The notes under the pieces are model-generated. The model worked only from the letters and a program-made list of their open reading frames with translations, was not told the DNA's origin and made no database searches. A DNA stretch of 64,000 nt, taken from positions 1,100,913 through 1,164,912 of the forward strand of contig CAJINV010000019.1 of assembly GCA_905178155.1 (NCBI GenBank), read 5' to 3'. Positions 2,227-64,000 of the stretch are shown one piece after another. The DNA comes from Amoebophrya sp. A120. Taxonomy: Eukaryota > Protista > Dinoflagellata. The stretch's first letter is position 1. The number at the start of each line of letters is the position of its first letter. The translations under genes and the position numbers were made by a program.

Positions 2227-5200
2227 TCACCGTCGCCGATCGTAGTCCGGGCGGCTGTAGCCCCTGCCGGTGTTTCTGGCGGACTGGTCCACATCGTTAT
2301 TCCCCAGATCCATGTCCGCGGATCCCGCGCTGGCGCTGCCCTGCCCGCGCGCGTGGCCACTGCCGCTGCTGGGGCTGCCGGAAAAGTCCTCCGGCCGGCT
2401 GCGGTTCCCCCCGCCACCGACCTGCTGGCCGGGGAGGTTGGCGCGGCCCCGCCGCCCGGGGGCGGAGGCTTGGCTGCTGTGCTGCTGGTTGCCCGGTATC
2501 AACTGCAAAAGTGTCTGGGTCTGGAAGAATGCCAGACTTGTCATGCAGGTTTTCCATGACCCACGAGCTCTGGCATGAAGGACATAGCATGACAGATTCT
2601 GTGAGAGTTCTATCATGCCTATCCTGCATGAGAATCTGCCTCTCGATTAGGTTAAAAATGGACAGCTTTTGGTAATTATGCAACACAGATTTTTACATCA
2701 TTCAGATTTAGCATGACAAGTTGTTTTGTTCCAGACCCAGACATTTTTACGTTTGATATCCGGGCTGCTGTGGCGACTCGGCTGTCCACCCTGCTGGTCG
2801 TGGCTGCTGCTCTGCATGCCCATCGTGTTGGCGAACCGAAACCCGGAACTGCGGTCCAGGCCGCCCGACCGTTGCTGCTGGTAGCCCGAATACATCTGGT
2901 AGCCGGAACCCCGGGCGGAGCCCATGCCGGAGGAGGCCATGCTGTTCTCGCCCATGCCGGGCGAGAATTCCTATCATTTGTAAAAACGTCCCCACACCAG
3001 AGTCAAGATGGGAAACCTGCTACACAAATCAGCCAGCTTTGGTCGTTTGGCATGACAAATTTGTCCTCGTAGTGTGATCCTGTTTAGGTAGTTCAGCGGC
3101 ATCACAGATCTAGTATATCATGCTGATTATATATAGCGTCACAAAATCCAAAACACGACTAGAAAATGCCTCTCATGGCGCTCCGCGTGACAAACTTTTT
3201 TGGCATGCAGATCTACATGACAACTCTGGGGTGGGGACATTTTTACTCAAGATAATTCCGGCCGCACGTTCAGGTTGTCGTACCGGTAATTCACATCGTC
3301 CGCATTGTCGTCTACCATCGCTGTAGTTGTTGGTGTATCATTCATTCGATGTACTTTTGCATCTTCACGCACCACTTGCATCAGAAACGCGCACTCCACT
3401 GCGCCAAGCGCACGTTGACAAAGGAGCAAATAAACGCAAAGAACTTAATATCGCAAGATGTAGATGAAAGCGCATTGTTCTTGTAAAAATGTCAATCGAG
3501 TAAGTACACGAACATCAAAAATCTGCGTTGTACTACGTAAGTACACGGCTTCCAGAAGATGAAGTCAAGTATGCAATTATATACCTGATGTTCCGAATTG
3601 CTGCATATTCTGCGCTCGCTTTTTCCTTTGCTCGTCTTCGTCCATTTGGTGGGTAAAGTCCTGCCCGAACATGACGGGGGTCTGCTGATTTCTGAATTCT
3701 TCCTGCTTCAGTTCCTCCTGGAGGTCCTTTTCTTGCTTGCCCAGTCGGCTTGTGTCCGGCTTAAATTTCTTCCGGGCCGGGTTGCCGAAATCGTCGTTCC
3801 ACTGGTCATCGGCGATGGCCTGCTTCTTTTGCTTGTTAATAGTCGCGTGCCCTCGTACCATCATCTCCGTATCGCAGACAATGTCGAATTCGTTGGTACC
3901 AATGTTCGGCAACTGCCCGAGAATAATGTTCTCGGAAACGCCCTTGCAGTGGTCGACCTGGAAGTTTGTTTCAAAATCAAACCAATTGCATCAATTCATT
4001 TCATGACAAAAATTCCTTCCACGGTTCCACCATACTACTTCATTCAGCCTGTCGATCTACCTCACATAATAAAGTCTACTTTTCGATACCAAAATTTCGT
4101 TTCGTCGTGTAAAGAGAAGTACGTAGTACAAAGCTGTGGTTGTACACGACGTGATTCTTGTAATGTATACATTTCATAGTAGCCTAGTTGAAAATATCAG
4201 TGAAAGAAGATTTTTCTACCTGTCCAAACATGGCCGCTTCCATCAACATTTCCACGGTTTCTTCAAACGAGCACTTCATGAGCGGGCCGTGGTCCGCCCG
4301 GTTCACGCCGTGTCGACTGATGGCCATCAGGTGCCCGCGGTTTGACATGGTGTCACACAGCACCGCCAAGTGCCGGTAGTTCACGTAGGCGCCGTCGAAG
4401 GAAATGACCGCCTTCACTTCGTCGTGTAGCTTCTTTCGCACCGCTTCGACGCCTGAGGTGTTGAGGAGGGTTCATTCTTATGTGCTGGACGCAGAATAAT
4501 TGTAAATTGATAAAGCCTTTTCTTTTGTACCGAACATACGTTGGATTGTTCTTCCACGTTGTATTTCCAGAACTGGAAATACCCCTTCCTTTCGTCACGT
4601 GAGAAGAAGATACATGCGCGCCAGATGTAGTGAAGAGGCGTGCACAGAGGCTGCTGGCATTCTTGATGTACACTTTCCTTGTAGAAGATGAAAAGTTGCT
4701 TGTTCTATAAAAAGTAAGTAGCAGTTGTACCTAAAACTTGCATGATCTCCACAACGTCATTGCTGGTGGTTCTCCTGGCGTCGATCTGTTCGATCTGCAG
4801 GATTTCCTCCAAATTGCACCCCTCCGTGTCAAGCAGCCACTCCTTTTCCGCTCGGTCCCTCCGCGGGAACTCGCCCGTGGTTTCGTCGTACTTCACGACG
4901 TTCTCTTCCCGCATGAACACCTTGCGAATGCCGTGGACCCCCTTCAGCACCATATCCTTCAAAATGTCCCGCTCTATGTTCTTCAGGAACCGGCAGTCCT
5001 TATCCTCATCCTCCTCCGCAGCCTGCTGCAGGTCGTCAAAATCGTCCCCCGCGTTTTGCTCCTTCACGATACGGAGGCGCAGGACCAGTTCGTCCGCGTT
5101 GTCGTCGGTAAAAATGCAGTTCAAGTCGCCCATAAAGTCGTTGATGATGCGCTCGTATGAACTGCAAAAGTATCGCACTCGTAGTATTGCAATACAAATC

Positions 5201-8200
5201 AGCTCAGCATGACAAATGGAATCTGTCATGCTCACTTAGGTTGAACAAGAAACTTGTCTTGCATGACTGCGATTAGTACGAGTACGATGCTTTTGCACAG
5301 GATAGCTCGCCGACCTCGCGCATCGAGAGTTTCTTATCCGTCATCACCTTGTTGTCCAGCTGGATGCGGAGCACCCAGGGAGAAAGCCGGTCCCGGTTGT
5401 CTTCTTCGTCGGGGAGCTCGTAGTACTCGCCCACCCATTCGCGATCCTCGGGCACAATGGTTTGGTCGGGCTCAGGGTCGTAAAAGATCTGTAGTGCGAG
5501 AACAAGTAGAGGAAATGCGAGCGGTCTCTTTTTAAAAACGTATCAAAACAAAAATCTGTTTCGAATCCACCCCAAAAAGTAGATCTCTATTTTCTACAGT
5601 TTAGCTGGCCCTCTATCACAAAGGAAGCGCAAGGGACAGATGCAGATCTTGGTCGCATCTTCGTCCGCCATTTACGTCACAAAATCCAAATCACTCGCAC
5701 GGAAATATATATCAAACGGTCAAGAAGTGTTGTACTATGAAATTGCATCGATAGATTGCATCTGCTTCTGCTGTACTAAATGAACAGAACTATCTATCCA
5801 GGAAAAAAACTGTGTTAGTATATTGAAAACTAAAATCCCAAAGGGAAGATATAACTTTCTATGGCTAACAGCATCACAAATTTGCTGTACATGACAGAGA
5901 AAACCCGTCATGCGTGACCTGTAAGGGAAAACACACATGAAAAGAGGACGTCATGGCTGTCTGGCATGACAGGTGTAACTCTGTTGCATGTCCTGCATCA
6001 CAGAGTTACACTTACACGGTTTTTTTCTTGCATACTATCTACAAATTTTATACCTGTGAAAAACTGGTGATTTTCTCGAGAGTGGTGTGTTCGATATGCG
6101 CCTGGACATTTTTCGCCGCCTGTTTGGATTTGGACACTTCGGGGACTAAATAACAGGTCAGCGAGGGGGTTTTCACGGTCTTCGCCACGTTGATAATCTC
6201 CTTCAACCGCGGCACGCCAAGGGTAACGTTCTTGGACCCAACCTGTTGAGAAATATTTCAGTATCATTGAAAATTGTATTAGAATAGTCAGGTGGAACGA
6301 CAGCAGCCTGCACCACGACGGGGGTGCACTCGGTCGGGGGCGACGAGCCACGACGGTGACATATTATCATTCTTGAACGCGCCTACTGCTACTTACTTCT
6401 TGAGAACATTTGTCCAACACCAGCATGAGCATCGTCAAAACAACTTAAAATTTTTCCTGCAGGGGTAGAACCAATGAGGCAAGAAAAACCAAAAGTAAAC
6501 ATCCACTAAATACCCCGGCAAAGTGGAAGGTGTTTAGTGTCATCTGTGTGGCCGGTTCTCCGACGGACTGCGCAGCGATGGTCCCGACCATCTCGCCCGC
6601 TTGCGCCAGCGACCGTTCGAATTTGTCCTTGATTTCCCCGAGGAGCCAGTCCAGGGACCGTTTTGTCAGCTTGTCCTGCTCGAGCACGCGTCGACTGTTT
6701 AACCGTGTGCGCAGGTGGGCGTTAAGCACGATCATACTGTTGTTTAAAGTCTCCAGACCGAGCTCGTCCGACTCGTCCAACCCCTTAATGGTCTGGAGGG
6801 AGTCCATCAGGGCATTCACCTTGTTGATGATCTGCACCGGCGTGTAGTACTCCAGATCGCCTGCTTCCGTTCTCAGATCTTGCTCAAAGATCATCTGCGA
6901 TGTCTTCACCAGTCGGTCGATCGGAACCGGCAAGTGCTGCTTCGCCTCGCCATCCGGATAGATCTCCTGGCAGAGTTTGCGCTTGTAGTTCTTCAGCCGA
7001 TCGTACTCCTCGTCCATAATTTTTCGGTCCGCGGTGCGCCGCCCCTCCTGCAGCTCCTTGAGCCAGAGGCTGTTGTCGTCGCCGAGCAGCCAGTTCTTGC
7101 CGTAGTCGGGGGATTATCAAATGTAAAAATGTCCGGGTCTGGAAGATTCTGACACTTGTCATGCACGTTTTGCATGAGCCATGATGTCTGTGATGCATAC
7201 CCTAGCAATACAGATTTTTTGAGGGCTTCTTGATGCCTATTCCGCATGACAAATGTCTTCTCAGCGTAGAAAAAATTGCATTCCCTTTGCTAGTACTCAT
7301 GCAATACAGATTTTCTTGGAATCCAAATGTAGCACCACAAGTTGCATTCTTCCAGACCCAGACATTTTTGCATTTGATAGAGATTCGTGGTTGTTGCGCA
7401 GCTTGTCGTCCACCTGTTTGTGGGACCACTTGATCAGATCCAAATCCTGGTCCTCAATGTAGACCGCGTCCATGCCGTCCTCCCCGTACAAAAACTGCAC
7501 AATGTCCTCATTGTCGTTCCGGACGGTGCCGTCGTATCGCACCTTCAGCGTTTCCATGGACTTCACCAGCCGGCGCTGAATGTACCCGGTTTCGGAGGTC
7601 TTCACCGCCGTGTCGATCACTCCCTCGCGACCACCCATCGCGTGAAAGTAAAGTTCCTCGGGCGTCAATCCGGCGAGGTAACTGTTCTCGACGAAGCCCC
7701 GGGACTCCGGCCCGTAGTCGTCTTTCGCAAAGTGCGGCAGCGTTCGGTCGCGGAAGCCGTTGGCGATCCGCTTCCCTTCGACGTTCTGCTGATATCCTGT
7801 GCACAAGTATCGCACTCGTACTAATTGCAATTATGCATGACAAATCGTGTCCTTAAGGTGAAACAGCATTACAAATTGAATTTCTCATGCTGAGGGAATT
7901 TGTAATGCATTTATACGAGTACGATACTTTTGCAGTTCATAGCTGACCCACGCAGGCAATAATCTGGGCGACGTTAATGTTCGAACCCTTGGAGCCGCAC
8001 TATCGAGTGCAAAAATGTCTGGGTCTGGAAGGGTTGGAACTTGTGATGCAAACTTTGGACTCTAAAAAAATCTGTATTGCATGACCAGGAAGAGGAGCCA
8101 CATTTGTGCTACGCGAGGAGGGCATTTGTCATCCGGAAATGGCATCAGGAAGCTTTCCAAAAATCTGTGATGCTGGGTCATGCATTACAAGCATCATGGG

Positions 8201-11200
8201 TCATGCCAGACAAGCATGACAAGCCTTCTATTCTTCCAGACCCACACATTTTTGCATTTGATACGCACGTCACCATCGCAATAATGTTATTCCGCTCATC
8301 CAGGGAGTCGGAACCTGTGAAGATGTGTTGGGCAAAGCGTCAGATGATGAAGGAAGAATTGAATATTTTTGTCGATCGCAGTAGTTCCCCTCCTTGCACA
8401 GGTGGCATCTTCTTCGTGAGGAAGTAGGGAAGAAGTAGAGCGACGTCTTCAACTTTTATTATTGGCGCGGTTCTTTCAACATTGAATTCATTAGCTTCAG
8501 CGTTCCGTAATGTTCACGGTACAACTGCATCTGCTCTGTATTCAGAACTTGCAACGAGCAGCACCGTGCGGCTCCTTCGATACACCGGCGGCACTACTTC
8601 GGTACAACTACTTCTGCATGCAAGCAGGAATAATTCTAGTAATTGCGACAAAAACCATAAACACGAAGAGACACCAGCATCACTTAGCTACAGAAAAATT
8701 TCTCTATTATACCGATTCGCCCCGCCTCCTCGCGCGCACTGTTCAGGGACTGATTCACGGCGTGCTCGAAGGATTGGTGCATGGTTTTTCCTGGCTGCGT
8801 GTCCAACTCTCCGCGCTGGGCCTTGGCCACCGTTTCGGCCACCTTGTCCTTCGCGCCCCGCAGCGTCTCGGCCACCCGCTGCATCGTCTCGTCGTTGGCC
8901 ACAATATCCGCGCACCCGCACGTAAACCCGTGGTGCAGCAGCCAGGTGTTTACCATCTTTTGGATGTAAGAAATCAAAATCTTACACGCCTCCGGACCGT
9001 GGTCGAGCCAGGTCAAGTGCAAAACACCCCCGGATTGGGTACCTGAGTCGATGAGGAGAGGTTCTTTCAGATGGAAAATCAAAGAACGCAGTGAGTTGTG
9101 TGATTCCTTTTCCTGCACAGAGCTGCATGAAATTTCGATCGCGACCGGTAGAAATAGCACTTCTCCGCATGACGTCTTCCATTTTTTTGCGATAGGTCAT
9201 GATAAAATGAAATGTCACTAATCTTTTGCTTTTCGAAATCTATCAATTATGCACATTAATCCGCAGGACCAGAATAATTACCAACGATTTTTTTGTCCAC
9301 CCGTCCGCAGACGACTTGACCTATCACACAGAAAAAAACTGGCAGGTCATATTTGTAATGCAGAAATAAATAGACAAGAAAACTTGTATTGCATAGCATG
9401 CTACAACGAGATCGCCCATGACCTGTGTATTTATTTTTGCATTACAAATGTGCCCTGCCAGCTTTTTTCTGTGGGATATGACCGTCGCGGATCACGCACT
9501 TGTGATCGGACTTCGAAAACATGGCGTTGTATCAAAGTGAAAAATCCCCCCACCCCATAGTCAAACTAGAAATTTGTGATGCAGATCTGTGGCCACAAAT
9601 CAGCTTTGTCATGCTAGAAGGGAAAAGATGCGGACTGTAGTGATGGCTGGCCTGGGAAAGCCTTGCATCTTCAGCATGACAAGGGGCAGCTGGAAGTGGG
9701 AAACAGCATGACAACTTGCCTGCAAAGGAGGCCACAGCTGCGTCTCTTGGCCTTCTAGCATTACAAGTCGATTTGTGTACTCAAATACAGCACCACAAAT
9801 TTCAATTTCGATGTGGGGAGGGGGAATTTTTCCTTTTGATACGTTGTCACCCTTGTTTTTCGCCGCCACGCCGTTGTCTTTCGTGACGTTCAGTCGTGGC
9901 TTTAACAGCAGCGAGAAAATCTGCTTCCCGGACCACAGCGGCTCCGGCTTCAGGATGCAGGGGATGGGCACCTGGCCGTTCCAGTCCGGCAGCGTGAGGC
10001 AGAGCGAAAACACCGCGTCCCGGGTCAACAGCGTGTCGCGCTTGGTAAACTTGGACACGGCGAGGCAGGCATCCTGCACGATGCCCATCACCGGCTTGTT
10101 GCCCTGGGGAGACACCTATCAAGTGCAAATATGTCTGACTCTGGAAATTTGTGATGCATGTGAGTGAACAGAAAGCGCGCTGTAATGCACCGCCAAGCAT
10201 GACAGATTTTCTCGTGGCCCTGTGTTGCGTATTCCGCATGAGAAACATGGTTTTTGCATGACAGACAAGAGGAGGTCTTCGCGGCCACGCAATACAGAGT
10301 TCTGAGTCATGCCAAACTAGCATGAGAAGTCTCGCAATCTTCCAGACCCAGACATATTTGCAATGCATAAGACCATTTGCTTGGGCACCAGCATGATGTG
10401 CTTGATTTCCGCGCGGGTCTCGTGACTCTGCGCCAGGTGCAGGTTCATCTCGTCGCCGTCGAAGTCCGCGTTATAGGGGCTGGTCGCAGACAAATTGAGG
10501 CGGAAGGTGCTGTAGGGCAAAATCTTCGCCCGGTGCCCCATCATACTCATCTTGTGCAGCGAGGGCTGCCGGTTGAACACCACAAAGTCGTTGTCCACCA
10601 TGTGCCGCTCCACCTTGTCGCCGATTTGCAGAAACCCGGCGGCCTCCTGGTCGTTCTCGGGGACGTGCGTATACCGCAGATCGATCGTGCTCCCGTCCGG
10701 CTTCTTGATGAACTTCGCCCCCGGCCACTCCGTGGGCCCGTTGCGGACCGCTTTAAGGAGCTTCTTGAAGGTGATGGAGGTCACCCGCTCGGGGAAGGTC
10801 AGGTTGAAGGCGATGGACCGCGGCACGCCGACCTGATCAATGTCCAACATGGGATCCCCACCAATGACCGTTCGCGCCGAGAAGTCCACGCGCTTGCCCA
10901 TCAAGTGGCCGCGCAACCGGCCCTCCTTGCCCTTGAGCCGCTCGCGGATGGACTTGATCGGCTTGCGGGACTTGGTGGTCGCCTGGGGGAGGGACTGGAT
11001 GTTGTTGTCGCACAGAGTGTAGATGTGGTACTGCAGCAGGTTCGCGAACTCCTGACACACGTGCTTGCCGCTGCCCATCTGCAGCTGCTGCTTCAGCGTC
11101 AGGTTGGCCTTCAGCAGGTCCAGAAGCTTGGCCGTCAGGTCGTCCTCACTGCGGTCGGTGCCGAAGGAAACTGTGGGTCGCACCGGGGGCGGTGGGACGG

Positions 11201-13064
11201 GAAAGACGGTCAAAATCAGCCACGCGGGGTCTGACTTGCCCGGAATGAAACCCATGGCCAGCTTGTCGCGGTCCGAAATGTTGCTCAGAATGCGGTACGC
11301 CTCCTCCCCAGTCAGTTGCCCTGTTTTGGTCGTTTTTCAAATTTTACTAGGATGTTGGCCATGATATTGAAGCACCACGGATTCATTATTAGTTGTGCCG
11401 CGGTACACAGGACGGTACTGGAGCACTAAACGAAAAATGAAATGATCTGTATCTACTTCCATAAAAATACGTTTTCTATCCTTGTTTTCCCCCTCGTCTG
11501 TCTCGTCCTCTGGGAAAACGACGAACACTTGCGCCCCCTCCTGCACTATGGATTGCAAAAATGTCTGGGTCTGGAAGGTTGTAACTTGTGATGCTATCTT
11601 CGGATTCCAAAAAAATCTGTAATGCATGACCAGCAAGAGGCTCAGTTTTTGCCACGGCGAGAGGGCATTTCTCATGCGTAATTAGCATTAAGAAGCTTTC
11701 AAAAAATCTGTGATGCTAGAACCAGCATCACAGACCTCACGGATCATGCAAAATGTGCATGACAAGCCCCGACTCTTCCAGACCCAGACATTTTTGCATT
11801 TGATATGCACGTATTTTGGTTGCGCATAGCCGCACCCGGAGGTCGCACTCGCCATTACTTCCAGGTCTTATGGATGTGTCAGAGTTGAAATCGACAAAGT
11901 TGAAACAATTTGCCATGCATAAAATGAATGCCAATTAGACCTGCAGTTTGTAGTCGGTGCATGACAAATTTTCCTGGTCCTGGAAGCGAGTCTGTCATGC
12001 GGTTTAGGGCAAAAGAGCTGCCTTCTGTCATGCTAGTCAGCAGTTCAACTGTTGACCCTTACCAGGACTATTATCTGCCTCCCTTGCGTCCTCTGCAATA
12101 GAGTCACATTTTGTATCGCATTTTATGCATTACAAGTTATTTCAACTTTGTCGATTTCAACTCTGACACATCCATAGGTCTTCCCCGTTTTGTATTGCCT
12201 GCTGATCCGTCACGAACGGACACCGCTTCTTACTTCGGCAAAGAGCGCATACCTGCAGGTGGATGGTTTTAAATTATAATCAAATTTCAAATTTGTGCTT
12301 TGTGGAGGAACGCACTACTGCTGAGCAAGGTGGCAAATAACGCAAAACGTGAGTCGCTGCATGTAGTCCCGGCGTGGTCGCCCTTCCAAGGCTATGTAGC
12401 GCCAGTACAAGCTCCAGGTCGTCTCGGACCAAGTCGGATCGAAGTCGAACAAACAACACAAAATCTAATATCAAAAGAAAAGCAAATACGTGCGCCAGTC
12501 GCTGCTTCATGTTCTTGGACTGTTGCGCCTTCTGGATGCCCAAGTCGTCGTAGGGCGTGAGTAAACGACTGCAGTAGTAACAAACGCAGCGCAGGCAACT
12601 GAGTGTCGTTTTTAAAAATCCCCAGGAAAACATGGGCTGCGCGAGCACGATGTGGCCAAAGTGCCCGGGACAGTTGTCCATGTTCATGCTGCAGGTGTCG
12701 CAGGGGGTCTGGTAGTCGATGGGGCCCATGCGCGGGTCGTTGAGCCCGCCGTAGGTGGGGAGCCCGCCCTCATAGGTGTTGGGGTTCACCACTTCACACA
12801 CCGACTGCTGGGTAATTTCGTCCGGGGACAGCACGGTGAACTATCCTGTGCAAAAGTATCGCACTCGTAGGAATCGCAGTTATGCATCACAAATCTCCAC
12901 TCCAAGGCAAAACAGCATGACAAATTCCATTTGTCATGCTGAGCTAATTTGTATTGCAATTACTACTAGTACGATAATTTTGCAGATCATATGAACCGCA
13001 CCGCGGCGATCTTCTTGTAGGGCGCCCGGGACTTGGGCACGTCCAGGTCGCTCACCGTCGTCAT
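2227..13064 (-). CDS. RPB1: DNA-directed RNA polymerase II largest subunit (multi-exon: ~9 GT-AG introns plus 12 exonic TAT..ATA element introns)
   Basis: Motifs [37 protein letters not shown], catalytic [56 protein letters not shown]. The frame is continuous after removing the elements. The 3' end (stop at 2227) is less certain. Confidence 0.96.
2497..2758. mobile_element. Introner family A (TIR TATcaaatgcaaaaatgtctgggtctggaa)
   Basis: Flanks cccgg/tccgg; interrupts RPB1 C-terminal exon; frame restored. Confidence 0.9.
2972..3254. mobile_element. Introner family D (TIR TATcctgagtaaaaacgtacccacaccagagt)
   Basis: TSD attcc/attcc; excision gives RPEFSPG. Confidence 0.9.
5156..5304. mobile_element. 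Introner family C (~150 bp; TIR TAT..tgcaaaagtatcgcactcgta)
   Basis: TSD gctcg/gctcg; excision gives EVGERIIND. Confidence 0.93.
5795..6034. mobile_element. Family F element nested in a GT-AG intron
   Basis: TSD ctatc/ctatc; partly decayed TIR; lies within RPB1 intron ~5489-6053. Confidence 0.8.
7115..7379. mobile_element. Introner family A
   Basis: Flanks gggat/gagat; excision gives NHESPDYGK. Confidence 0.92.
7793..7941. mobile_element. Introner family C
   Basis: TSD gctga/gctga; excision restores conserved [13 protein letters not shown]. Confidence 0.95.
8001..8263. mobile_element. Introner family A
   Basis: TSD cgcac/cgcac; excision restores [12 protein letters not shown]. Confidence 0.95.
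9322..9478. mobile_element. Introner family F (TATcacacagaaaaaa; long hairpin)
   Basis: TSD tgacc/tgacc; ~50 bp imperfect TIR; excision gives IRDGQVVCG. Confidence 0.92.
9530..9841. mobile_element. Introner family E (TIR TATcaaagtgaaaaatccccccaccccata)
   Basis: TSD cgttg/cgttg; excision gives GDNAMFSK. Confidence 0.92.
10117..10369. mobile_element. Introner family A
   Basis: Flanks acacc/agacc; excision restores [16 protein letters not shown]. Confidence 0.94.
11547..11805. mobile_element. Introner family A
   Basis: TSD tgcac/tgcac; excision gives QPKYVQEG. Confidence 0.93.
11869..12176. mobile_element. Introner family B (TIR TATggatgtgtcagagttgaaatcgacaaagttgaaa)
   Basis: Perfect ~37 bp TIR; TSD ggtct/ggtct; excision gives GEDLEVM. 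Confidence 0.94.
12842..12991. mobile_element. Introner family C
   Basis: TSD tgaac/tgaac; excision restores [11 protein letters not shown]. Confidence 0.95.
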
Positions 13065-15250
13065 GGCTGGGTAAAGGCACTTCGACTGGGTGGGAAGATA
13101 AAGAAGATACAGAAGCTGGTGTCGGTTGTTTTCTTGCGGAGGTCGGTCGCCTAGGTGGAGGAAAATAAAAACTTCTTCTACCGGGAGATTTTTACTAGAT
13201 TGCTACTAAGTTCTTGGAAAGAACAAGCGTCGAATGCAAGCGCGGCTCCGCTTTCTCAGCACCTGTTCCTCTTTTCGTCGACTTCGCCCCGGAGGTAGTT
13301 CTTGTCCAAGTCCACCTGATTCTAGTACGTTGTGGTACTTACTATCGGGGTCCCCGGAGCCCTAGGACGGCTGCAGTGAATGTCCCACGACGTCGAGGAG
13401 GGACAAATTAAAGCCACGCTCATGCTCTTTTCTTCGTCTCATTTTCGATGTGCCAGTACACGGCTCTCTGAAATATTACTAACTTGAGTATCTATTTTCC
13501 GTGCATCGGCTGCAGCAATCATGAACTCAAACCATACAATTATCCTTCTGGAGAACTACTACAACCAACTCATATAGCTTCTTCATGCTCGTCGTCACTC
13601 TTTTGTCTAAAGAACTTATTAATTTCTCTCTTGGTGTCGCCTGCGTAGTACTACAATTGATTCCATTTTAGAAGCGGTCTATGAATATTCGCCTTGTAGT
13701 GCCTTGTTTGTAGTACATGTGTTCGATCTTCATCTTGATGTTGACCCGACGCATTGAATTTCCGCGCCGGTTGGAGCGGAGCGACGACGGACTAGTGGCC
13801 GAAACAACACCGGTTCAATTTCACATCAGGCACCCCCGGTGCGGCGTGTCAAAAGAACGTGGATTACGATTACAGCCACACGCACTTCTCAGAAGCTACG
13901 AGCTTATGGTCTATTTTTTTAGTTATATCATCCTTGTTTTATTTCCTCCAAACGGATAGATCAGAATCTTGACTCTGCGTCTAGGCAGGGCGATAGATCC
14001 AATATGAGGCTGCGATTAACCAAAACACGAGCAGCTGCAGGTGCAGCAGAGATCTTTTATTACACATGTTGGCAGCACTCATTTGGGAGGTCAAAGTCTT
14101 TGGAGTTTTATTGCCTAGGATCTCGATCAGGATCAGGAGTATAAGTATAACGATCTAGTTTTATTAAAGGCCTGAATTTTATACGTAGAAACCACAAAGC
14201 AAAGGTGAAGAGCATACGGCTCTGATTTTTCAGAACCTCGTGTGCTGCTAAGGGCACCTCCTCTCGTCTATTCTCAGGCAGAATCTCGATTTGGCCGTAG
14301 TTTGCAGCAGCAACACATGCTGTATGCTGCAAGCTGCATAACGCAGAATTTTTCTTCAAACAGCATCATTCTGCCCTCCTCTCAGTCTTCACGCAATAGC
14401 AGCTTCCGAGAGATGTGGATACTCTGAAAGTCGTGCCGGTAGCAGCAATCCGCTTGATTTGAGTCGTGAGAATTGCATTTCCAGACCGGCAAATGACATC
14501 AACCACTGATCGTGATCATCCACAACACCAGATCTACTAATATGAACCCAACAAACTGCCTTCGCCGTCCTTTTCTCGTGCGTTGTTTTTTTTTGCACCA
14601 AGCAATAGTCCATCTAAATTTTTGTTGAAAAACTTTATTTCATTTTCCTGACGCAACTGCCTGTGGGTCTCTTTTTGATAATCATCATTATAATTTGTCA
14701 ATCTTTTCACAGCAGGATGAACGACGAAAATCCGCGATATTTCGTTAATCTTGCTGCTTGCTGTGCGTCAAAGACCACCCCGCAAAGACCGCGAAGAGCT
14801 TTTCAGATCATCAGATCCGGAGGACAGCTGCTGCTGTATAAGAGCCAGATCTTCACATACTCTAACACGACAATTCTCATCTGGTCGATCCGCTACGATT
14901 TTGATCATCTTGTACTCCTGCAGTTGCTTTTTACACGAGGGAAAAACGAAGATGACCTCTTCTGATTCTCTAGTGTAGTAGCAGGTCTACCAAAAAATTA
15001 AGTTAACACATTCTTTAAAGGAACGACTCGTCTCGTACAAAACGTAGACCTCTCTCTCTACCTAGTGGGAGCAGCAGACCATAGACCACGTCGCCGACCT
15101 AGAACTCATTCCAGTGTACTAATCATGCGTGGACCAAATCTCGTTGAGCCAAATTGGAATTCACATCGCAAGAAATGCCGAAATATAAAAATAAATGCGG
15201 TCTGCACGAGCCCGTAGTTATTGAGTTCCCTTGTTCTTTCGACAAGCTAC

Positions 15251-19836: not shown

Positions 19837-21263
19837 GATTTGGCTTCTGATCTTTTACTTCCGACTGCAGATGATGTACTTCGAGGTTAAGTTTTCGAAC
19901 CACAAGTAGTGGCTGTTGAGGAAGTTGCTGTGAAGTAAATTGAGACGAGGGTCAACTTCAGAAGAATGGCCCTTCACGATCAACGCGAAAAAACAGTATG
20001 TAATCGTCTGCGACTGGCAGCGAGCTGCACTTTACAAATTTCCTGCACTTTGTTTGAAAAAAAGATAAAGGTCGACAGCTATCGGGATCATGAATCGAGA
20101 TAAGGTTAAAGCTCGATACAATTCTTTATTACCGGGGTGGCCATAAGGGGCAGAACGAGCTTGAACGAAAACGATTGCCTCGAGTAGGGACGTACCACGT
20201 GTGAAGCTAGAGACTTTCACGCCCTACCATCGGTGCACGTACGAAAATAAAATTCTGCTGCATATAAAACGCGTGTAGTTCTTCGTCTTCCTTGCGAATC
20301 ATGCAATCTTCTCTATTTTTGTGCAATAGTTCTGGCTGGTTAGTGTTTCCCGGTACCGCAGTCTATGGTACTTCGGGACCCGGACGACCACGACAAAGGC
20401 ACTTACGAACAGAGACAGCCTCCACGTCACTGTGTGTACTTAAACTAGCGTGCTACCCTTCATGGTACGATGAGCACGACGATTCGAAAGCATCTACTGC
20501 ACTGACGTCTCCCACTGTAAACAGAGCGAGGCTCCTTTCAAATAAAGCTATGCAAAGCAATATTAAAAGACCGATGAAACAAGGACGTTTTCATTCTGTT
20601 TCCAAAAAGACAGGCTGTTGTTGCTTTCACGATTCCATAGTTTATATATATTTTATGACACGACTAAAAATGCCTGTTTGAACAACTTCGCCATCACGCC
20701 ACAACAAGAGCAGGAAGTTATTTGGAGCGCCAGGACGAACCCCGCCAAGGCGGATAAACAAGCACTTCTGAGGCCGACAAACTAGATGCCTGATGCCAAT
20801 CACTAAGCACTTTGATTGTCCTACGCGTAGCAACAACAGCAGGAGATGATGTACTTAACATCTGCGGCTGTCGCTTCTTTTTTTCCATTCCCCTTGGTGG
20901 ACAGCACATTGAAATTCACAAGTAAGTATCACGCGACAAGTTTTTGCAACCCGCCAGCGCATCGGGTTTCTAAGTAAGTGCCGGTAAAAATCGTACTTCT
21001 CCAGCCATAATGTGCTTGTGTGCAACAATACCACTGCCATTCGAGATTCGTCTGGTGCATGCCTGCTCCCCACTTTGCGACAAAAATAAAAATATCAGTC
21101 ACTCCTCAGGATCGCGCGACTTCTATTTTTAGGTGAACAGATATATACCGACCTGCTACGTCCCCGTAGCAACAAAACTTCCACCTCACCTTCGCCCGTA
21201 CAGATCCCAGACGCTGTTCATCATACTGAAAAGCGACCCTACCCCGGACACACCTCGGCAGCA

Positions 21264-38772: not shown

Positions 38773-38789
38773 GGTTGCGATTCGACTCT

Positions 38790-48200: not shown

Positions 48201-48737
48201 ATGTTTCTCATGCTAAGCACCTAGGCCAAAAGCTCTCTACTCAGGCTGGGCAGGAGCCTGCAGTCCTCGCCAGCAAGACAGATCTGATTTGAGTACGCAA
48301 ATCCAGCATCAGAAACTTCGTTTTGATATGGGGAGGAGGGATTTTTCCTTTTGATAGTTGATTTCTGCCTCGTCATCGTCTTCCTCTTCCTCCGCAGCTT
48401 CTTCTACCGGCTGGGAGGTTGCATTTATTTCCTCGGAGGAATTCGAATTTGTAGCGTCGCTTTTTGTTGGAGAGACCACGACCACGTTGCGCGTTTGCAC
48501 AACCTTTTTCATCACCTTTTTCTTCAATTTCTTCATAGAAAGGGAAGATGGCGCTGCTGTAGCCGATGCTGCATCTTCTACTTCTGTAGTAGTATCCACC
48601 TTAGCCTTTTTCGCTGCTCTATTGTCCTCGACGACAGAAGCGGTAGAAGTTGCAGGTGCGCTGGCGGCCGCTGCTGTTTCCTCCACACCGCTGGCCGCCT
48701 TTCGCTTCAACTTCTTCTTTTTCATAGCGACAACCAT
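45248..48737 (-). CDS. DDX18: DEAD-box RNA helicase HAS1/DDX18
   Basis: [79 protein letters not shown]. Confidence 0.93.
46000..46261. mobile_element. Introner family A
   Basis: TSD actgt/actgt; restores QSARQSVFHQF. Confidence 0.93.
46316..46467. mobile_element. Introner family C
   Basis: Flanks atcaa/gtcaa; restores [14 protein letters not shown]. Confidence 0.94.
47752..48002. mobile_element. Introner family A
   Basis: TSD ttgat/ttgat; frame restored. Confidence 0.92.
48036..48356. mobile_element. Introner family E
   Basis: TSD gttga/gttga; frame restored. Confidence 0.92.
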
Positions 48738-52500: not shown

Positions 52501-55500
52501 CCTTTTCCTGCTCATGCATCACAGATTTAAGAGTCATGCCAGACAAGCATGACAAACGTGCATTCTTCCTGACCCAGACATATTTGCAACCCATACGCCG
52601 GCGCTGCTACCAAACTGCAAGTTGTTCGAAGGAGCATTATTGTAGTTACCACCCGCCGTGGTCGTGACCCCACCACCGCCCGTCATTCCACCGGCGCGAA
52701 AAACCGCCTTGCGTTCGAGAACTGGGACTTTGACGTTTCTCCTAGATGTACTACTTCTTCGCTGGTGGTTGTAAAGACGCACAGCGGCCGCCGCGTCAGG
52801 AGCGCGGGCAAATTGAAGTTCCGAAGTCGTATTCCAATCCTTTATCGCACGCTTCACAATTCTACTTTTCCGGTCTGCAGCACGGGAGTTGTAGAAACTT
52901 TTCAGACGCCGCGGACCACGTGTCTCAAATGCAAAAGTGTCTGGGTCTAGAAGATTGCAACTTGTCATGCTGTTTTTCGACTCTAAAAAAATTTGTATTG
53001 CATGACCAGCAAGAGGGGGGCAATTTGTGCTACACGGACCACAGGGCATTTCTCATGCGGAAGGTGCATCAGGAAGGGTTCTAAAAATCTGTAATGCTAG
53101 GGCATACATCACAGACAATCGTGGGTCATGAGAAATATGCATGACAAATCATGCATTCTTCCAGACCCAGATACTTTTGCATTTGATAACGTGCTCGACC
53201 ACCCAACATGGTGTACGCGTTCATCTTCGACGGCGAGACGGAATTGTGATAGTATGCAATAAAAAAACTGTGTAAGTGTAACTCTGTCTTGCAGATGTTG
53301 CAATACAGTTACACTTGTCAAGCCGGCTATGCATCAGAGGCTATTTTAGTACGTGTTTTAGCGTACCAACTACGCATGACAAGTTTTCTGTCATGCAAAA
53401 CAAATCTGTGATGCTGTTCCTGCAAAAACGTTACACTTACACAGTTTTTTTCTTGCATAAATAAATTGCGCTGTCCATTTCCCTTCCCAATTCTGCGTGC
53501 GACGTGTCGTAGTGGTTGTCATAATTAAACGTGTTGAATAAAGAGCTGTCTTCGTAGTTCTCTCCTTCACCAGAACCACCAGCAGCAGCACGCCCGTCCG
53601 GTATAATTTCAGCAGAACCTGTTGAACAATGTCCTGCTCGTGGCCCCAACGCGGCGGAATGATCAACGGTCGCATCAAACCCAATCGTGTAGATGCACAC
53701 CCGGCGGTCTCTCCCTGCTGTGGCGACGATCGTTTTCATCATCTTCTTTATGGAGAGAAAAAGGTTTGTCACAGTCACTAATTTGCAGGCTTTGCATTAC
53801 AAATTTTCTTAGCATCACAAATTTTCCTTGTATTGCAGAAAACACTACGGAAATCCGTAATAAAGTTTGGCTGTGATGCATTTTTACGCATGACAAGCAA
53901 TTTTGTATTGCAAAAATGCGCATGAGTGACCGTGACGAACTTTTTTTGTTTGATATTCTTTGGGCTTGTTGCACTTGCACCAGAAGACGCACCAGTGGTG
54001 AAAACATGCAACGCCGGATTGGACACAGCAAGGCTCCAAAGCTCGTCGCTGTGGCTCACGAGCACTTCCCTTTGCAATAACGGGACCGGGAGCGGTGCGC
54101 ATGTGTAGTTCTCCATCAGGCTTCTCGTTCCGCGGGGGCCGGTAATATGGTTCTTGTTTGACGTCATCATCGGCCGGGGGATTGACATCACGCTAGATGG
54201 TGCACCAGAAATAGTTGCACCAGAATTCAGCCCCAAGACGCTCGCCACGTCATTCTGAAAAGGGGAAACCAGCTCTTGGTACTTCAAAGCCTGGTGACAG
54301 ATTTCCACGAAGCGGTTGGGCGGTGTCATGATGTTTGAAGGTAAGAGTTTCAGAATGGTGTCATATAAGTTTTTCCGTGTGTAGTGCAAACTGAATTTCT
54401 GCGGATGATCTCCTTCTCCTTTACTAGTAGCGTTTCTAGTGCGCCCTCGCGCTTCTCCTTGTGCTTTTCCCCGTCCACCAGCTCGCCGCAAACTTCTAAA
54501 CTGCTTGCTTTGTTTGAAGTCATCCACTAACAGAAACGAGGAGAGCTCGTGCACCCGTTTCTGCATTTTTTCGGAGTTGACTATCCCATTTTCCGGTAAG
54601 AGCATGAACTGCAGGAGTTGGATGGCTGTGATGATATCGTCGAAAAAAAGAAGCTCCAAGTAGTACTGTTCGTAGATGAGAAAGATGATTTTCTCCTTGT
54701 TCTTCTCCCACGTGTAGAATTCAGATAAGCTCGTGGGTTGCCGGGGTGGACGAAGAGGATCGTGTACGAACGACGAGGACCCACTGCTGGCACCACCAGC
54801 CGCAAAGTTTTCATCAAAAACCGTGTCCAGCAGCTCAAGCGCACCCTCGTAGTCGATTTTCGATGTCCTCGCAGGTTCCTGTTGATCTTCTATATTCTTT
54901 CCATCCACGACCTCTTCCGCATCTAGTCGCAATTTCTGCTTCAGCTGCTTGCACCAGGGGCTTTCCAGGCTCAACCCCGTCTCCTTTTCCAATGTCTGTA
55001 GAGATTGTGCGAGATATCCTGAGTAAAAACGCACCCACACCAGAGTCAGGATGGGGATTTTGCAGCACAAACCTAGGAGCTTTGTGAGTCACGCATCACA
55101 AGTTGCGCTATGCAGTGTAGTGCAGGTTAGCAAGTGCAGCCGCGTCACAGATTCATCTGCTCATCCTGTTCATAGCATCACAAATTCCAAAACACGATTG
55201 GAAATGGCTCTCATGGGGATGCGCATTACAAGTCTTCCTGTCTTTGCAAATCTGCATTACAACTCTGGTGTGGGTACGTTTTTACTCAGGATACGAGATT
55301 TAGAGACTTCAATGTCTGCATGATCAACAGCAGCACCTCGCTTGTCTGCAGGTTATTTCTGCTACCGGGAATTATCGCTTTGTTACCGAGGAGATTTTTT
55401 GAAGAAGACTCTATGCCACGAGGACCGACAATGAGAGTGTCTGCGTTTTTGTCCAGCATTTCCACGTCTATTGCAGACGCATCAATTGCACCAGCCACGG

Positions 55501-55907
55501 GCGCGGCCCCACCACCGCTACCCCCTCCGCCCTTCTTACCCCCGTGTTGACCACCTCCGCCGCCCTTGACCCGCTGTTTTTTCTGTTATCAAATGTAAAA
55601 ATGTCTGGGTCTGGAAGAGTGCATGTTTGTCATGCTAGATCTGGATCATGCAACAATCTGTGTTGCATGAGTACCAAAAGCCGTGCATTTTTAACCAAGG
55701 TGACAAGGAGTTTCTCATGCAGGATAGGCATGAGAGAGATCGCAGAGAATCTGTCATACTAGGTCCTGCATTCCTCACCTCATGGGTCATGGAAAAGCTG
55801 CATGACAAATCGCGCATTCTTCCAGACCCAGACATTTTTGCATTTGATATCTGTTGCGGCCCACCCATTTTCGGATCCAATGTTGAGGACTCAGCGCGTT
55901 TGCTCAT
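49539..55907 (-). CDS. WDR26: WD40 protein with LisH/CTLH, WDR26/GID7-like
   Basis: LisH QTLKSLNLAQSLQTLEKETG, CTLH IFLIYEQYYLELL, PPNRF..QALKYQ, WD repeats HSDELW, ATAGRD, YYGHTQSRFILRPTFGG, LKGHASSV. Confidence 0.8.
49843..50164. mobile_element. Introner family E
   Basis: TSD gaata/gaata; restores QSRFILRPTFGG. Confidence 0.93.
50725..51003. mobile_element. Introner family D
   Basis: TSD taatg/taatg; near-identical to 27095-27373 in opposite orientation. Confidence 0.92.
51145..51398. mobile_element. Introner family A
   Basis: TSD ctggg/ctggg. Confidence 0.9.
52345..52595. mobile_element. Introner family A (TGT left terminus)
   Basis: Flanks cgcct/cgccg; excision gives SAGGLVLE. Confidence 0.88.
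52923..53188. mobile_element. Introner family A (TCT left terminus)
   Basis: TSD acgtg/acgtg; frame restored. Confidence 0.9.
53253..53459. mobile_element. Introner family F
   Basis: TIR tatgcaa(t/g)aaaaaaactgtgtaagtgtaac; flanks gatag/aataa; frame restored. Confidence 0.88.
53779..53925. mobile_element. Aged ~150-bp introner
   Basis: Flanks gtcac/gtgac; dense octamer motifs; excision joins two ORFs in frame (FVTVTVTNLF). Confidence 0.7.
55015..55293. mobile_element. Introner family D
   Basis: TSD cgaga/cgaga; restores LisH motif. Confidence 0.93.
55587..55849. mobile_element. Introner family A
   Basis: TSD tctgt/tctgt; excision gives GPQQKKQR. Confidence 0.92.
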
Positions 55908-57357: not shown

Positions 57358-59152
57358 TCACGTAAGCGTAGATGAGGACCGCCGTATCATGGAAGTGTCC
57401 ATGCCACCTGTGGTAGTTTTTTATGCAACAATTTGACCAGCATGCTGAGTGCTGCGAGATAGCCATCGGATTCCGGCACTTCGCCTTTCATCTTTGTTTG
57501 CAAACTAAGAACACACGACTTAAACTTACCAAGAACTATCAATGGAAGATAAATTATACCAGCCCCAACCGGCCCGTCGTCTTTACTTCGTTCCCTATCT
57601 TTTTTTCTCTTTCCCCCACCGCTACTCGACGCGTCGCGCGGGGTCCACTCTTTCAGCGGCGATTTTCCAACGGAGAAAAGCCGTACATCCTGCTGCTCGA
57701 GTTGCTTGCTAGACGCCCCTATGCATTGCAAATATGTCTGGGTCTGGAAGAATGCAAGATTTGTCATGCTTGTTTCGCATGACTGTTAACGCTGTGATGC
57801 TTAGGCGCAAAAAGATCCTCTTGCCTGTCATGCAAAAATGGACCCTACCATGCGGAATACGCAACACACAGGAGCGCGAAAACTTGTCATGCTTGGTCAC
57901 CTATATCAGTGAGCTCATTACTCACATAGTTGCATCACAAGTTTCCGGACCCAGACATATTTGCATTTGATAGCCCCTCGCGAGTACATCATCTGCTCCT
58001 TAGACGGTCGCCAGTCGGGAGAGGAGGCTGGACCTAGTCAAGTATAAAAATGGCGTTGTTTTTTCCTCATGATGAAAAGAAAGTGACGAGTTCGAATCAC
58101 GACAAACAAAAATCCAATGGCGCGAAGCACCAGCATGAGAGGACAAAGAGCTTATTTATACCACTGAAGTCCTGGTAGCTATTTGATCTTCTCCGCACCC
58201 ATCGGGTTGCGTCTGCCTCGTAGCCAAACGGCCTTTCTATTGCATTATCAAGTGCAAATATGTCTGGGTCTGGAAGGTTCTGAGACTTGTCATGCACGGT
58301 TTGCATGAACCATGATGTCCGTGATGCATGCCCTAGCATCACAGGTTTTTTGCGGGATTCTTCATGCCCATTCCGCATGACAAATGCCCTCCCCGCGTAG
58401 CAAAAATTAGAATCCTTTTGCTGCTCATGCAACACAAATTGTTTAGACATCCACATGCAGCATCACAAGTTGCATTCTTCAAGACCCAAACATATTTGCA
58501 ATCCATATGCATCCACTTGATGCAACGGTCTTCCCACCACATCCTCTTTCGTCCCTGGTTGAGCGATATGCATTGCAAATATCCCTGGATGTCTGGAAGG
58601 TTCCACACTTGTCATGCCGTCTTTGGATTCTAAAAAAATCTGTATTGCTATGACCAGCAAGAGGAGCCCAGCTTGTGCTCCGCGGAGAGGGTATTTGTCA
58701 TGCGGAATAGGCACTTCAGGAAGCCTTCCAAAATAAATCTGTGATGCTAAGTCATGCACTACAGGCACCACGCGTCATGTAAGATATGCATTCTGCAAAC
58801 CTGGCAATGCAATCTTCCAGACCCAGACGTATTTGCATTTGATAAGCGACGATGGCGTTAGCCGCGGCTGTGTTCGCGCTAGATCCGCATCCCATATGCA
58901 TTGCAAATATGTCTTGGTCTGGAAACTTGTGATGCTGAGAGGCGTAGCGTCTGGAGGCCACAAGTGCTGGCCTAGCATGACAAATTTCTGAGCTTCTAGG
59001 TGTTGCCTATCCTGCATGACAAACAGCGTTTCGGCATGACAGAAAAATGTGGCTCTTGGGTAACGTGCATGACAGATTCAAGAGTCATGCCACGCAAGCA
59101 TGACAAACATGCATTCTTCCAGACCCAGACATTTTTGCATTTGATATCCCAT
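57358..59152 (-). CDS. Small hypothetical protein with MGCGSS dual-acylation-type N-terminus
   Basis: After excising four elements and two GT-AG introns the frame reads MGCGSSANTAAANAIVAQPGTKEDVVGRPLHQVDAIERPF..SRGASSKQLEQ..STLT*. Confidence 0.6.
57720..57972. mobile_element. Introner family A
   Basis: TSD gcccc/gcccc. Confidence 0.91.
58246..58507. mobile_element. Introner family A
   Basis: TSD tgcat/tgcat. Confidence 0.91.
58567..58844. mobile_element. Introner family A (variant left TIR)
   Basis: TSD agcga/agcga. Confidence 0.9.
58895..59146. mobile_element. Introner family A at the start codon
   Basis: TSD tccca/tccca overlapping ATG GGA on the minus strand. Confidence 0.91.
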
Positions 59153-62366: not shown

Positions 62367-64000
62367 CTAATTCCCCCTCGCATCTGCCGCCGTGTTGCAG
62401 TTGCTATACCCCAATTTTTCCAGCTCTTTCTGCAACCCTGCAATGTGCTGGCAGCCCACCACAGCCAGCACTCGACCGTCGAAGCCTACCAAAGTACTAG
62501 CCATCGATTCTTCGCGCCGGTGGAATATGATGTCCGACGTGTTTTTCGGCTCCGTTTTCAGAGCCACCTCGCGCAAAATGAACGCCAGCCGGTGGGTCGG
62601 CACGATGTCGTACGACAGTTCCGCGGTTTTGTTTTCTTGCAGTTGTCGGGCCTGGTGCTTCTGCGCGGAGGAAACGGGTGCAGAATTGGAATTACCACTA
62701 GACCCCCCGCCGCCGAGCTGTACCAATCGGTCTAACTCGGTATCGGACAAATCGCAGACGATCCGCAAGTAGTGCGCCAAAGACTGTTGCTTCAGGAGCT
62801 CACACGCCTGCAACGCGAGCTGATATCAAATGTAAAAATGTCTGGGTCTGGAAGGTTGCCAGGTTTGTCATGCATATTTTACATGACTCAGGATGTCTGT
62901 AATGCATGATCTGGCATCACATATTTTTAGAGGCCTTCCTGATGCCTATCCCGCATGACAAATGGCCTCCCCGCGTAGCACAAACTGGGCTCCTATTGCT
63001 GGTCATGCAATACAGATTTTTTAGAGTGCAAAGTTAGCATCACAAGTTCCAACCTTCCAGACCCAGACATTTTTGCATTTGATAGCTGGCGGTTGGAGTC
63101 AATGTGGAGGATCCGGCAACTCGGGCCGGCGAGGTACTTGGGCATGGCGACCGGAAAAGAATTGCAGATGGAGAGAACCTTTTTAAAATGACGTGGAAGT
63201 TATGCAAGAACTCTTGTGAATCATGCTACCATGTAATAAATGTTGCTCCGAAAAAAAGTAGAAAAACACGCTGATGAAACATCCATATCCACTAAAGTAA
63301 AGAATCACCAGAAGATAAGTACGCTCTTATCAGTCTTCTCCGTTTTCGCCTTCCTTGCAATCTCGTTCAAGAAATGCAGCCCGAAGTCCTCACGCAGCGC
63401 CTCGCGGCGGAAGGCGTCCGCTAAGCCCTTCCACGTTTCCCGACCGTCCAAAGGCGCTTCCAGCCCAACGATGTGGGGCTGCAGACGCCGGAATACCTTT
63501 TTTTCAGTTGGTATTCGGTGCGGGGTGAATTACTAGTTACCCGACTGCAAGGCGTAGAGCGTCACACAACGTGGTGGTCTTTATTGTTTCTCATGCTCTA
63601 CTGCGGGCTTTTATGATCTCATGACATGATCAAGAACAGATGGAAACACGATAGGAGCTTAGTGTTATTCACGGATCGTCTTAATGAAAAAGTACCTTCG
63701 CCATGTTGATCGCGTCGTACTTCGAGTAGTGCAGTTGTCCTAGGATGTAAATGTGCGAATTCTTCGCCACCATTGGGTTGTTTAAACACCACTCTGCCAA
63801 GTCCTCGTTTGTCGTATCGCGCAAAACGCGGTACAAATCCAAGCCGTACGCCATCGCTTTGTCCAAGTAATCCTTCGGCTCCTCGACTTTCGCACCACTA
63901 CTTATGGGGGTGTCAGAATCGAAATCGTCAAACTTGAAATAGTTTGCCATACATAAATAAATGCAACGCAAAAATTGTCTCCATTGCAGAGGACGCAAGG
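62367..64000 (-). CDS. TraB-domain (TRABD-like) protein, 5' part beyond window
   Basis: C-terminal IIFHRREESMASTL..VLAVVGCQHIAGLQKEL resembles the TraB family ER/VVG-H motif. Upstream exons lie at 63.1-63.9 kb. Confidence 0.6.
62824..63084. mobile_element. Introner family A
   Basis: Flanks gctga/gctgg; excision gives NRQLALQ. Confidence 0.92.
63903..64000. mobile_element. Family B element, truncated by the window edge
   Basis: Begins tatgggggtgtcagaatcgaaatcgtcaaacttgaaa, like 11869 and 41519. Confidence 0.8.

Follow-up and report, generated by a model that had tools for sequence, protein, structure and literature searches.

One internal motif, repeated at three-turn spacing across non-alignable introner families of Amoebophrya sp. 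A120, is a probable duplex-DNA binding code

We analyzed a 64,000-nt stretch of the Amoebophrya sp. A120 genome (contig CAJINV010000019.1, positions 1,100,913 to 1,164,912 of the forward strand; hereafter the window), whose genes lie on the minus strand and contain many short inverted-repeat elements. The first gene encodes the RNA polymerase II largest subunit (RPB1); the best match of the protein was at 87%, and the best named matches were apicomplexans and dinoflagellates at 60-65%. An inverted-repeat and direct-repeat finder detected 56 elements and a relaxed search 6 further, giving 62 elements of 149-343 bp with ends TAT...ATA that together occupy 15,912 nt. A family E element starting within 63907-64000 runs off the window end and is not in this count. 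The elements match the published A120-type introners (PMC7789003, passages on introner anatomy). They carry copies of one octamer, TGTVATGC in either orientation, which is the subject of this report. The features are listed below by window position; no strand is assigned to the elements.

2300..13066, minus strand: RPB1 host gene, interrupted by 13 elements; 3' limit approximate
2497..2758: family A element; transcript skip 267, empty site in related strain
2972..3254: family B element; transcript skip 288, present in related strain with 3 differences
5156..5304: family C element; transcript skip 154, empty in related strain
5795..6034: D-group element inside GT-AG intron 5489-6053; present in related strain with 2 differences
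7115..7379: family A element; transcript skip 270, duplication mismatch brackets splice register, empty in related strain
7793..7941: family C element; transcript skip 154
8001..8263: family A element; transcript skip 268
9322..9478: D-group element; transcript skip 162
9530..9841: G-group element
10117..10369: family A element; transcript piece begins at 10370, available GT..AG cut unused
11547..11805: family A element; strict sites 11587+, 11618+ (31 apart), 11709+, 11725-, 11757- (32 apart)
11869..12176: family E element
12842..12991: family C element
15397..15712: degenerate A-like element; 1-2 high-scoring sites, transcript contig piece ends at edge
16098..16376: family B element
16701..16909: D-group element inside predicted GT-AG intron
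17088..17239: family C element
17361..17623: family A element
21219..21561: degenerate singleton element
21793..22072: family B element
22126..22378: family A element; 6 strict sites, spacings 31, 33, 20, 39
22418..22671: family A element
22770..23181: family B relic with 4 strict sites; lacks its left end (limit there approximate) and retains the right one
24369..24630: family A element
25239..25503: D-group element
26066..26327: family A element
27095..27373: family B element; site offsets 32, 63, 111, 144, 193, 224, one common facing
27464..27725: family A element
27769..28002: D-like singleton element
31249..31459: D-group element
31971..32009, minus strand: orphan site pair (31971/32002), 31 bp apart, in inferred GT-AG intron without terminal inverted repeats
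32811..33114: family H element
33298..33549: family A element
33601..33869: degenerate A-like element
33921..34245: G-group element
35291..35542: family A element
35610..35802: degenerate C-like element
37428..37678: family A element
37735..38043: family H element
38099..38407: G-group element
38454..38735: family B element
38790..39054: family A element
41147..41453: family E element
41519..41824: family E element
43188..43439: family A element
43472..43713: D-group element
46000..46261: family A element
46316..46467: family C element; transcript piece begins at 46469
47752..48002: family A element
48036..48356: G-group element
49843..50164: G-group element
50725..51003: family B element; transcribed strand with TGT..GC copies only, skipped in transcript contigs
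51145..51398: family A element
52345..52595: family A element; left end TGT, not TAT
52923..53188: family A element; left end TCT, not TAT
53253..53459: D-group element
53749..53955: D-like element, own cluster
55015..55293: family B element
55587..55849: family A element
57720..57972: family A element
58246..58507: family A element
58567..58844: family A element
58895..59146: family A element
62824..63084: family A element

The elements are flanked by a 5-bp target-site duplication (TSD), which was perfect in 47 of 62 elements, with one mismatch in 14 and two in 1. Their terminal inverted repeats (TIRs), about 30 bp long, open TAT-N7-AAA; TAT, which was built into the finder, was present at 98-100%, and A at positions 11-14 at 70-85%. 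The ends of family E and of clusters 8, 10 and 13 depart from the consensus after TAT. An end consensus, TAT-S-N6-AAAA, is common to the families despite unrelated bodies. With the motif and the 30-nt ends masked, 2 of 91 pairs of multi-member families matched, over 20-25 nt at an E value of about 1e-4. Hence the description of the families as unrelated in an earlier note on this DNA holds for the bodies and fails for the ends, and end-to-end alignability, which that note had named as the outcome that would reduce the motif to common descent, was not found.

The strict octamer occurred 237 times between 2539 and 63037, 114 times on the plus and 123 times on the minus strand, and GCATGACA was the most frequent 8-mer in the window. 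The elements held 219 of the 237 copies (13.8/kb), and the remaining 48,088 nt held 18 (0.37/kb). Dinucleotide shuffles of the elements gave 4.4 ± 2.0 octamers (maximum 10 in 300), and the 18 copies outside also exceeded shuffles of the outside DNA (4.6 ± 2.3). Position 4 was C, G or A in 114, 70 and 35 copies, respectively, and T once. Unsupervised motif fitting returned a strand-symmetric core, TGY-N3-RCA, and the full oriented consensus was a 12-bp motif, RYYTGTVWTGCD. Sites scored with a position weight matrix reached 18.0/kb in elements, compared to 0 in RNA-covered exons, 0.19 in intergenic-like DNA, and 0.81 in RNA-delimited GT-AG introns; within elements they showed no strand bias. An end variant, TATGCATTGCAAA (e.g., at 33601, 46000, 57720, 58567, and 58895), holds the symmetric core at offset 2-3, and a terminus of this kind may be a degenerate site about 30 bp ahead of the first internal one.

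These counts bear out the concentration of the octamer in elements that the earlier note had reported, and the enrichment over shuffled controls that it had called for is present. Its finer counts were too high. Instead of 5-10 copies per element, we found 1-6 strict copies (median 4), with at least one in every element, and 2-10 (median 6; shuffled 0.5) when one mismatch was allowed; instead of about 8 at 11547-11805, we found 5 strict copies and 7 with one mismatch. The facing pairs with spacers of N5-9 and the overlapping palindromes, described as frequent, came to 7 strict facing pairs, all N8, and 3 overlapping forms (18 looser). The spacing rule described below, the 12-bp motif and the identity of the elements with published introners go beyond that note.

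Metagenome contigs were searched with the pattern TAT-N7-AAA, a site at 32 and a second site 31 further. At least 142 stretches were found, and 140 loci were retained, 139 from one assembly; locus L133 was the sole architecture match from another metagenome assembly. The loci yielded 341 elements, of which the 335 of 400 bp or less were combined with the 62 window elements, and these 397 were grouped into 29 non-alignable clusters.

Paired sites within elements followed a strict spacing rule. Among 18 window representatives, 19 pairs were 31-33 bp apart, whereas 3.5 ± 1.8 were expected. Same-direction pairs at 31-33 bp numbered 69, and opposite-direction pairs had no peak there. Across the 29 clusters, counted on members that do not match the search pattern, 17.1 of 45.8 cluster-weighted same-direction pairs (37%) fell at this distance, compared to 1.9 ± 1.3. 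The spacers between paired sites are unrelated across families. A distance of 31-33 bp corresponds to three turns of B-DNA. The first site also lay at set distances from the element end: it was 32-34 or 40-46 bp away in 15.7 of 29 family-weighted ends, compared to 5.8 ± 1.2, and faced either in or out. Family C sites face outward at 32-33 and 41, family B sites inward at 32, and family A sites inward at 33 and 40-42.

The sites are conserved in all testable families. Core bases differed at 1.8-5.0% and spacers at 14-15% in 296 pairs of nearest neighbours, with motif positions assigned from just one partner of each pair, and the core value was below the spacer value in 14 of 14 families; the V position was free (15% change). 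Thus, in the comparison of substitution rates inside and outside motifs that the earlier note had proposed, the core changes about four times less than the spacers. Indels of at least 3 nt between paired sites were halved (0.48, P=0.003), while those of 1-2 nt were not reduced (1.13). The fixed 31-33 bp spacing, the fixed offsets in either facing, the conserved core and the strand symmetry support the DNA form of the shared protein-binding code that the earlier note had proposed, and the motif arrays are probably binding sites on duplex DNA, whatever the protein does there. The other part of that proposal, one transposase serving all families, is unproven; none was found here.

If the motif had no function, it could derive from one ancestral repeat by common descent or from a mutational bias such as CpG loss. 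The elements are CpG-poor (observed/expected 0.56) and TpG/CpA-rich (1.51), and the terminal consensus is common to the families, as such an origin would have it. However, dinucleotide shuffles reproduced 4.4 octamers rather than 219, neither the masked bodies nor the paired-site spacers are related between families, and the roughly fourfold constraint on the core holds in every family. We therefore consider this origin extremely unlikely.

To follow the elements into RNA, we used two transcript-like contigs, X3 and X4, whose runs were taken as RNA by guess and all come from one sample. The element plus 5 nt was skipped at 7 of 7 element joints among the 15 of 37 joints listed, and both contigs also skip CT..AC introns. 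Transcript piece edges agreed with element removal for the elements between 46316 and 52923. Elements are thus removed precisely from transcripts without GT-AG ends. The 15 of 159 joints listed in a second comparison were mostly DNA-run joints between element ends, and among those listed no DNA-level empty form was seen. The raw-read runs X9 and X10 yielded 154 and 3 partial reads, respectively; almost all of these diverge from the stretch, and they carry no evidence. DNA contig depth was about 29 on unique DNA and up to 120,930 on elements. An Rfam search gave no match, and two scans of viral contigs found nothing.

Because removal happens at the RNA level, the motif could instead be an RNA signal: an RBFOX-like GCAUG site, a branch-point mimic (GCAUBAC), or stems of nested hairpins. 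Predicted folds were compatible with stems. In the 31 of 62 elements that were folded, bodies lay below shuffles (mean z -3.3, and -2.3 when the motifs were kept fixed), and of 1184 motif bases 506 paired with other motif bases; pooled facing pairs also agreed at the free position in 27 cases compared to 17.2. However, folding was equal on both strands (P=0.65). In seven family alignments, complementary covarying column pairs equalled the identity control, and the terminal stem was the only helix in common, with no internal one. In family A, 9 of 23 copies had a facing pair that agreed at the free position, always in one state, and the pooled excess came from one family-D site; motif flanks showed no pairing excess, so that a mini-hairpin reading fails. 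The signal is also not oriented on the transcript, with GCATG at 112:112 between strands and family B, whose sites all have one facing, inserted 27:23 relative to the coding strand. Rigid 31-33 bp spacing is unexpected for single-stranded RNA, and copies poor in sites are spliced nonetheless. A role as an RNA signal is accordingly very unlikely, and the orientation-independent RNA signal or nested-hairpin scaffold suggested in the earlier note fails for want of covariation and on these strand counts.

Two specific RNA candidates were rejected. RBFOX proteins recognize an invariant GCAUG. The G that defines GCAUG is the free position of the motif, as variable as the spacer (15% change), and an invariant GCAUG on the transcribed strand was not found; the RBFOX resemblance raised by the earlier note is dropped on this ground. 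The branch-point reading was rejected since, in 7 of 19 elements under the transcript contigs, the last 80 nt before the 3' end contained no GCAWBASA in sense orientation. In the TIRs, no G.U bias toward the transcribed strand was found (26:26). Family A TIR positions 10, 14 and 15 changed together at the two ends (17 vs 12.5, 22 vs 15, and 23 vs 19.5, respectively, in 24 copies, with relatedness uncorrected), whereas positions 4-7 were the most mismatched between ends and showed no joint change.

Mismatched duplications bracket the splice cut. At 2497 and 46316, one or more bases ahead of TAT are removed with the element; at 7115 and 10117 it is no more than one, and at 10117 an available GT..AG is bypassed. 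If one register holds throughout, these four informative sites place the intron at N-TAT...ATA-NNNN, with one base before TAT and four after ATA. The base before TAT was unbiased (A19, T15, C14, G14). An N-TAT opening would resemble the GTAT donors of the host. Predicted introns without TIRs opened with GTAT in 39 of 76 cases, and decayed elements opened with G-TAT and had new AG ends; together these suggest a route from element to ordinary intron. Predicted introns in loci L010, L046, L048, L053 and L060 form a continuum from intact elements to G-TAT...AG introns with fading TIRs and residual sites.

Metagenome locus L021 holds the orthologous RPB1 gene from a related strain, with four-fold sites 7.3% diverged. 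Seven of nine window elements were absent there as empty sites with the duplication in single copy, and L021 has 4 insertions not in the window. These empty sites show recent mobility. In non-coding DNA, 3-nt indels were as frequent as 1-nt ones (171 vs 158; 6-nt, 42), also in GT-AG introns when window 3321-9281 was compared with L021; this pattern is a genome-wide mutational quirk, independent of the reading frame.

As a mechanism, we propose that the arrays are candidate duplex-DNA sites for one protein, most likely a transposase or a helper that would move every family. A near-symmetric protein would read the duplex, with TGY-N3-RCA present on both strands and flipped sites holding the same offset. 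Protomers on one helical face would bring both element ends together; cleavage at TAT and insertion with a 5-bp stagger would be the work of an integrase-like enzyme. Splicing would use a separate code, the family-specific terminal stem plus TAT. For mobilisation speak the end consensus and 5-bp duplication, which are common to all families, and the site content, which is equal in exonic and non-coding elements (216 vs 26, P=0.95). That site-poor elements such as 15397 are skipped in transcripts as well also counts for it. In six long derivatives (496-1207 bp), 11 of 12 ends retain a site at a distance of 32-44 bp, with foreign DNA in the middle:

L021:2485-3456
L021:7387-7882
L005:632-1465
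L027:4254-5401
L062:4759-5965
L063:1479-2293

Their ends are intact and enclose 0.3-0.9 kb of captured, unrelated DNA, and two of the six lie in RPB1 exons. Helically spaced end sites are described for Tn7-like and IS607 elements, and subterminal repeats for hAT elements, in the relevant sections of PMC10201428 and PMC6188088.

Several observations weigh against mobilisation. The 19 frames of four long derivatives and the window matched no transposase family (Pfam, tblastx), no autonomous integrase-like partner was found in the window or in 510 kb of loci examined, and Farhat et al. 2021 report no transposase in A120 (PMC7789003, passages on introners). Some sites lie mid-element, more than 100 bp from both ends, and no general 10.5-bp periodicity of sites was found (amplitude 0.10; about 16 bp gives 0.33), the 31-33 bp distance being the only sharp one. 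Copies with a mismatched duplication were no more decayed, and no neutral dead class was seen, a point that is weak if insertion ages are similar. The pooled agreement of facing pairs at the free position (27 vs 17.2) also counts here, with one family-D site driving the excess. On balance, the chance that mobilisation is the main job of the arrays is about even.

Further points against a code for transposition alone come from resting copies and introns, and they bear on a host role. In this alternative, a chromatin protein of the host would bind the resting element and either mark it for co-transcriptional, U1-independent removal or shield it; exons would tolerate elements with the code, which could thereby spread. 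Such a role and mobilisation are not mutually exclusive, and the duplex-DNA evidence fits both equally. Two copies shared with the related strain (2972-3254 with L021:6946-7228, and 5795-6034 with L021:4001-4240) differed at 5 of 523 bases without an indel, while beside them 36 of 496 four-fold sites differed (P=2e-7), and introns showed 129 differences in 1963 bases plus 33 indels. These two elements are about seven times less diverged than neighbouring synonymous sites and introns. Shared copies thus barely change in place, whereas drift would be expected in resting copies if the code served transposition alone. This stasis could stem from purifying selection, from a low mutation rate where a protein is bound, or from allele conversion; it concerns two copies, spacers included, and introns themselves vary at 2.5-14%, so that low mutation or allele conversion could explain it without a host role. 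Constraint was uniform across copies, with a core/spacer ratio of 0.23-0.33 in all quartiles.

Sites beyond the intact elements also favoured the host role. Orphan pairs outside elements were 31-33 bp apart in 10 of 29 cases, and 9 of those 10 clusters had no convincing TIR. A home-made intron predictor gave 121 introns; it found the RNA-delimited ones again but takes decayed elements for introns too. Of the 121, 45 were removed for element-like matches, some with 31-33 pairs, and the 76 TIR-less GT-AG introns kept held 23 sites compared to 5.1 ± 1.7 in shuffles, a 4.5-fold excess. Another 16 inferred introns (18 sites) were picked partly by motif presence and were excluded as evidence. U1 small nuclear RNA was undetected in A120 and A25 (PMC7789003, passages on splicing). 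However, the intron sites may be relics, since many predicted introns are decayed elements opening with G-TAT, and the 10 RNA-delimited GT-AG introns carry just 2 sites. The site-poor elements at 15397, 9322 and 46316 are skipped in transcripts all the same, the 972-bp and 496-bp derivatives with one site at one end lie in RPB1 exons of the related strain, and exonic and non-coding copies are alike in site content. We regard this host role as possible, though rather doubtful. A combined form is unlikely but worth stating tentatively: one host-encoded protein would read a three-turn code that any TAT-ended hairpin can acquire, and would both license copying and mark the resting DNA for U1-less, either-orientation, fixed-register removal.

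Among known systems, the A120 introners of Farhat et al. 2021 (PMC7789003) are described, in the passages concerned, as inverted repeats that open with TAT, seven looser bases and at least three A, with short direct repeats, a length of about 240-260 nt and non-canonical splice ends. The window elements have the same ends, direct repeats, size, many families and non-canonical splicing. As published there, the introners share terminal repeats only, the singletons are unrelated, and mobilisation by a general transposase is ruled out. In the text and supplement text of that paper, to which our search was limited (figures S19 and S25 lie outside it), no internal motif, spacing rule or fixed register appears ('CATG' 0). 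The searchable text of PMC11453091, PMC11282704, bioRxiv 2020.10.14.339549 and PMC6482013 contains no such motif, the one co-occurrence being a primer, and literature searches, with subscription papers outside their scope, did not find the internal motif, spacing or register. The elements are therefore known, whereas no printed account of the internal code, of its spacing or of the register was found.

Subterminal binding arrays as such are known. The hAT element Hermes, IS607 TnpA and Tn7-like TnsB likewise use several short sites near the ends, at a set distance to the cut and with helix-tied spacing (PMC6188088, PMC10201428, sections on end binding). Introners resemble these arrays in that short sites recur a fixed distance in from both ends; the introner spacing of three turns is guarded against indels, yet there is no overall 10.5-bp period. 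The introners differ in having one motif across unrelated families, a three-turn step, and sites that flip without moving, in elements that double as introns. One array across unrelated TIR families that double as introns is a new form of such arrays.

As for transposon classes, Gozashti et al. 2025 (PMC12130899, supplement file 8, row 580) class A120 family 38 as TIR DNA / Ginger, with a 5-bp TSD, TA/TA termini, a length of about 808 bp and TIRs of 49-53 bp. The motif-carrying derivative L063:1479-2293 (815 bp) is similar in anatomy, likened by the description in that row only. Unlike that class, its frames match no integrase family, and its ends belong to the short-element cluster 8; it looks like a derivative with captured DNA. 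GingerRoot elements have TA...TA termini, as here, and this integrase-related class is a natural candidate for a 5-bp stagger, but their description in PMC6839031, as far as it covers ends, gives a 6-bp TSD and TIRs of 100-150 bp, compared to 5 bp and about 30 bp here. The TG...CA ends with 4 or 6 bp duplications of Ginger were not found in the window, where ends are TAT and the TSD is 5 bp.

Euglena non-conventional introns are likewise non-GT-AG, with the cut set relative to paired ends. In the part of PMC12501133 that defines it, their code is CDG/CHG near the ends, whereas introner positions 4-7 are the least paired and an internal array is present; the paired signature N3CDG ... CHGN5-6 was not found in introner ends. 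ApiAP2 proteins, a myzozoan DNA-binding family with a TGCAT core, bind TGCAT/TGCATGCA sites (PMC4117751, site descriptions), and the reverse introner motif often reads TGCATGACA. In the introner motif, however, the base before GCA is A, T or G, and a further ACA-R-R is needed. ApiAP2 as a candidate binder is a lead only.

Two other parts of the window differed from the elements. The stretch 29100-30300 is GC-rich with dispersed short repeats (e.g., about 29580, 29690, and 29750), unlike introners, and holds two frames without a Pfam match. At 49542-55991 on the minus strand, a frame of 1359 residues appears once nine elements are excised, with weak WD40-type matches in its C-terminal part.

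Non-canonical introns number in the tens of thousands in this lineage; PMC7789003 describes about 2,000 families, for which it saw neither a transposase nor a common link, and states both their movement and their splicing to be open. One internal motif with strict spacing unites these families as a single system, and a duplex DNA probe with two sites at a distance of 31 bp makes a concrete bait for the protein sought. The constant splice register and the continuum toward G-TAT introns suggest how elements become ordinary introns. In the combined form outlined above, intron identity would reside in the DNA duplex rather than in RNA, and as elements aged into GT-AG introns the code would persist longer than their inverted repeats.

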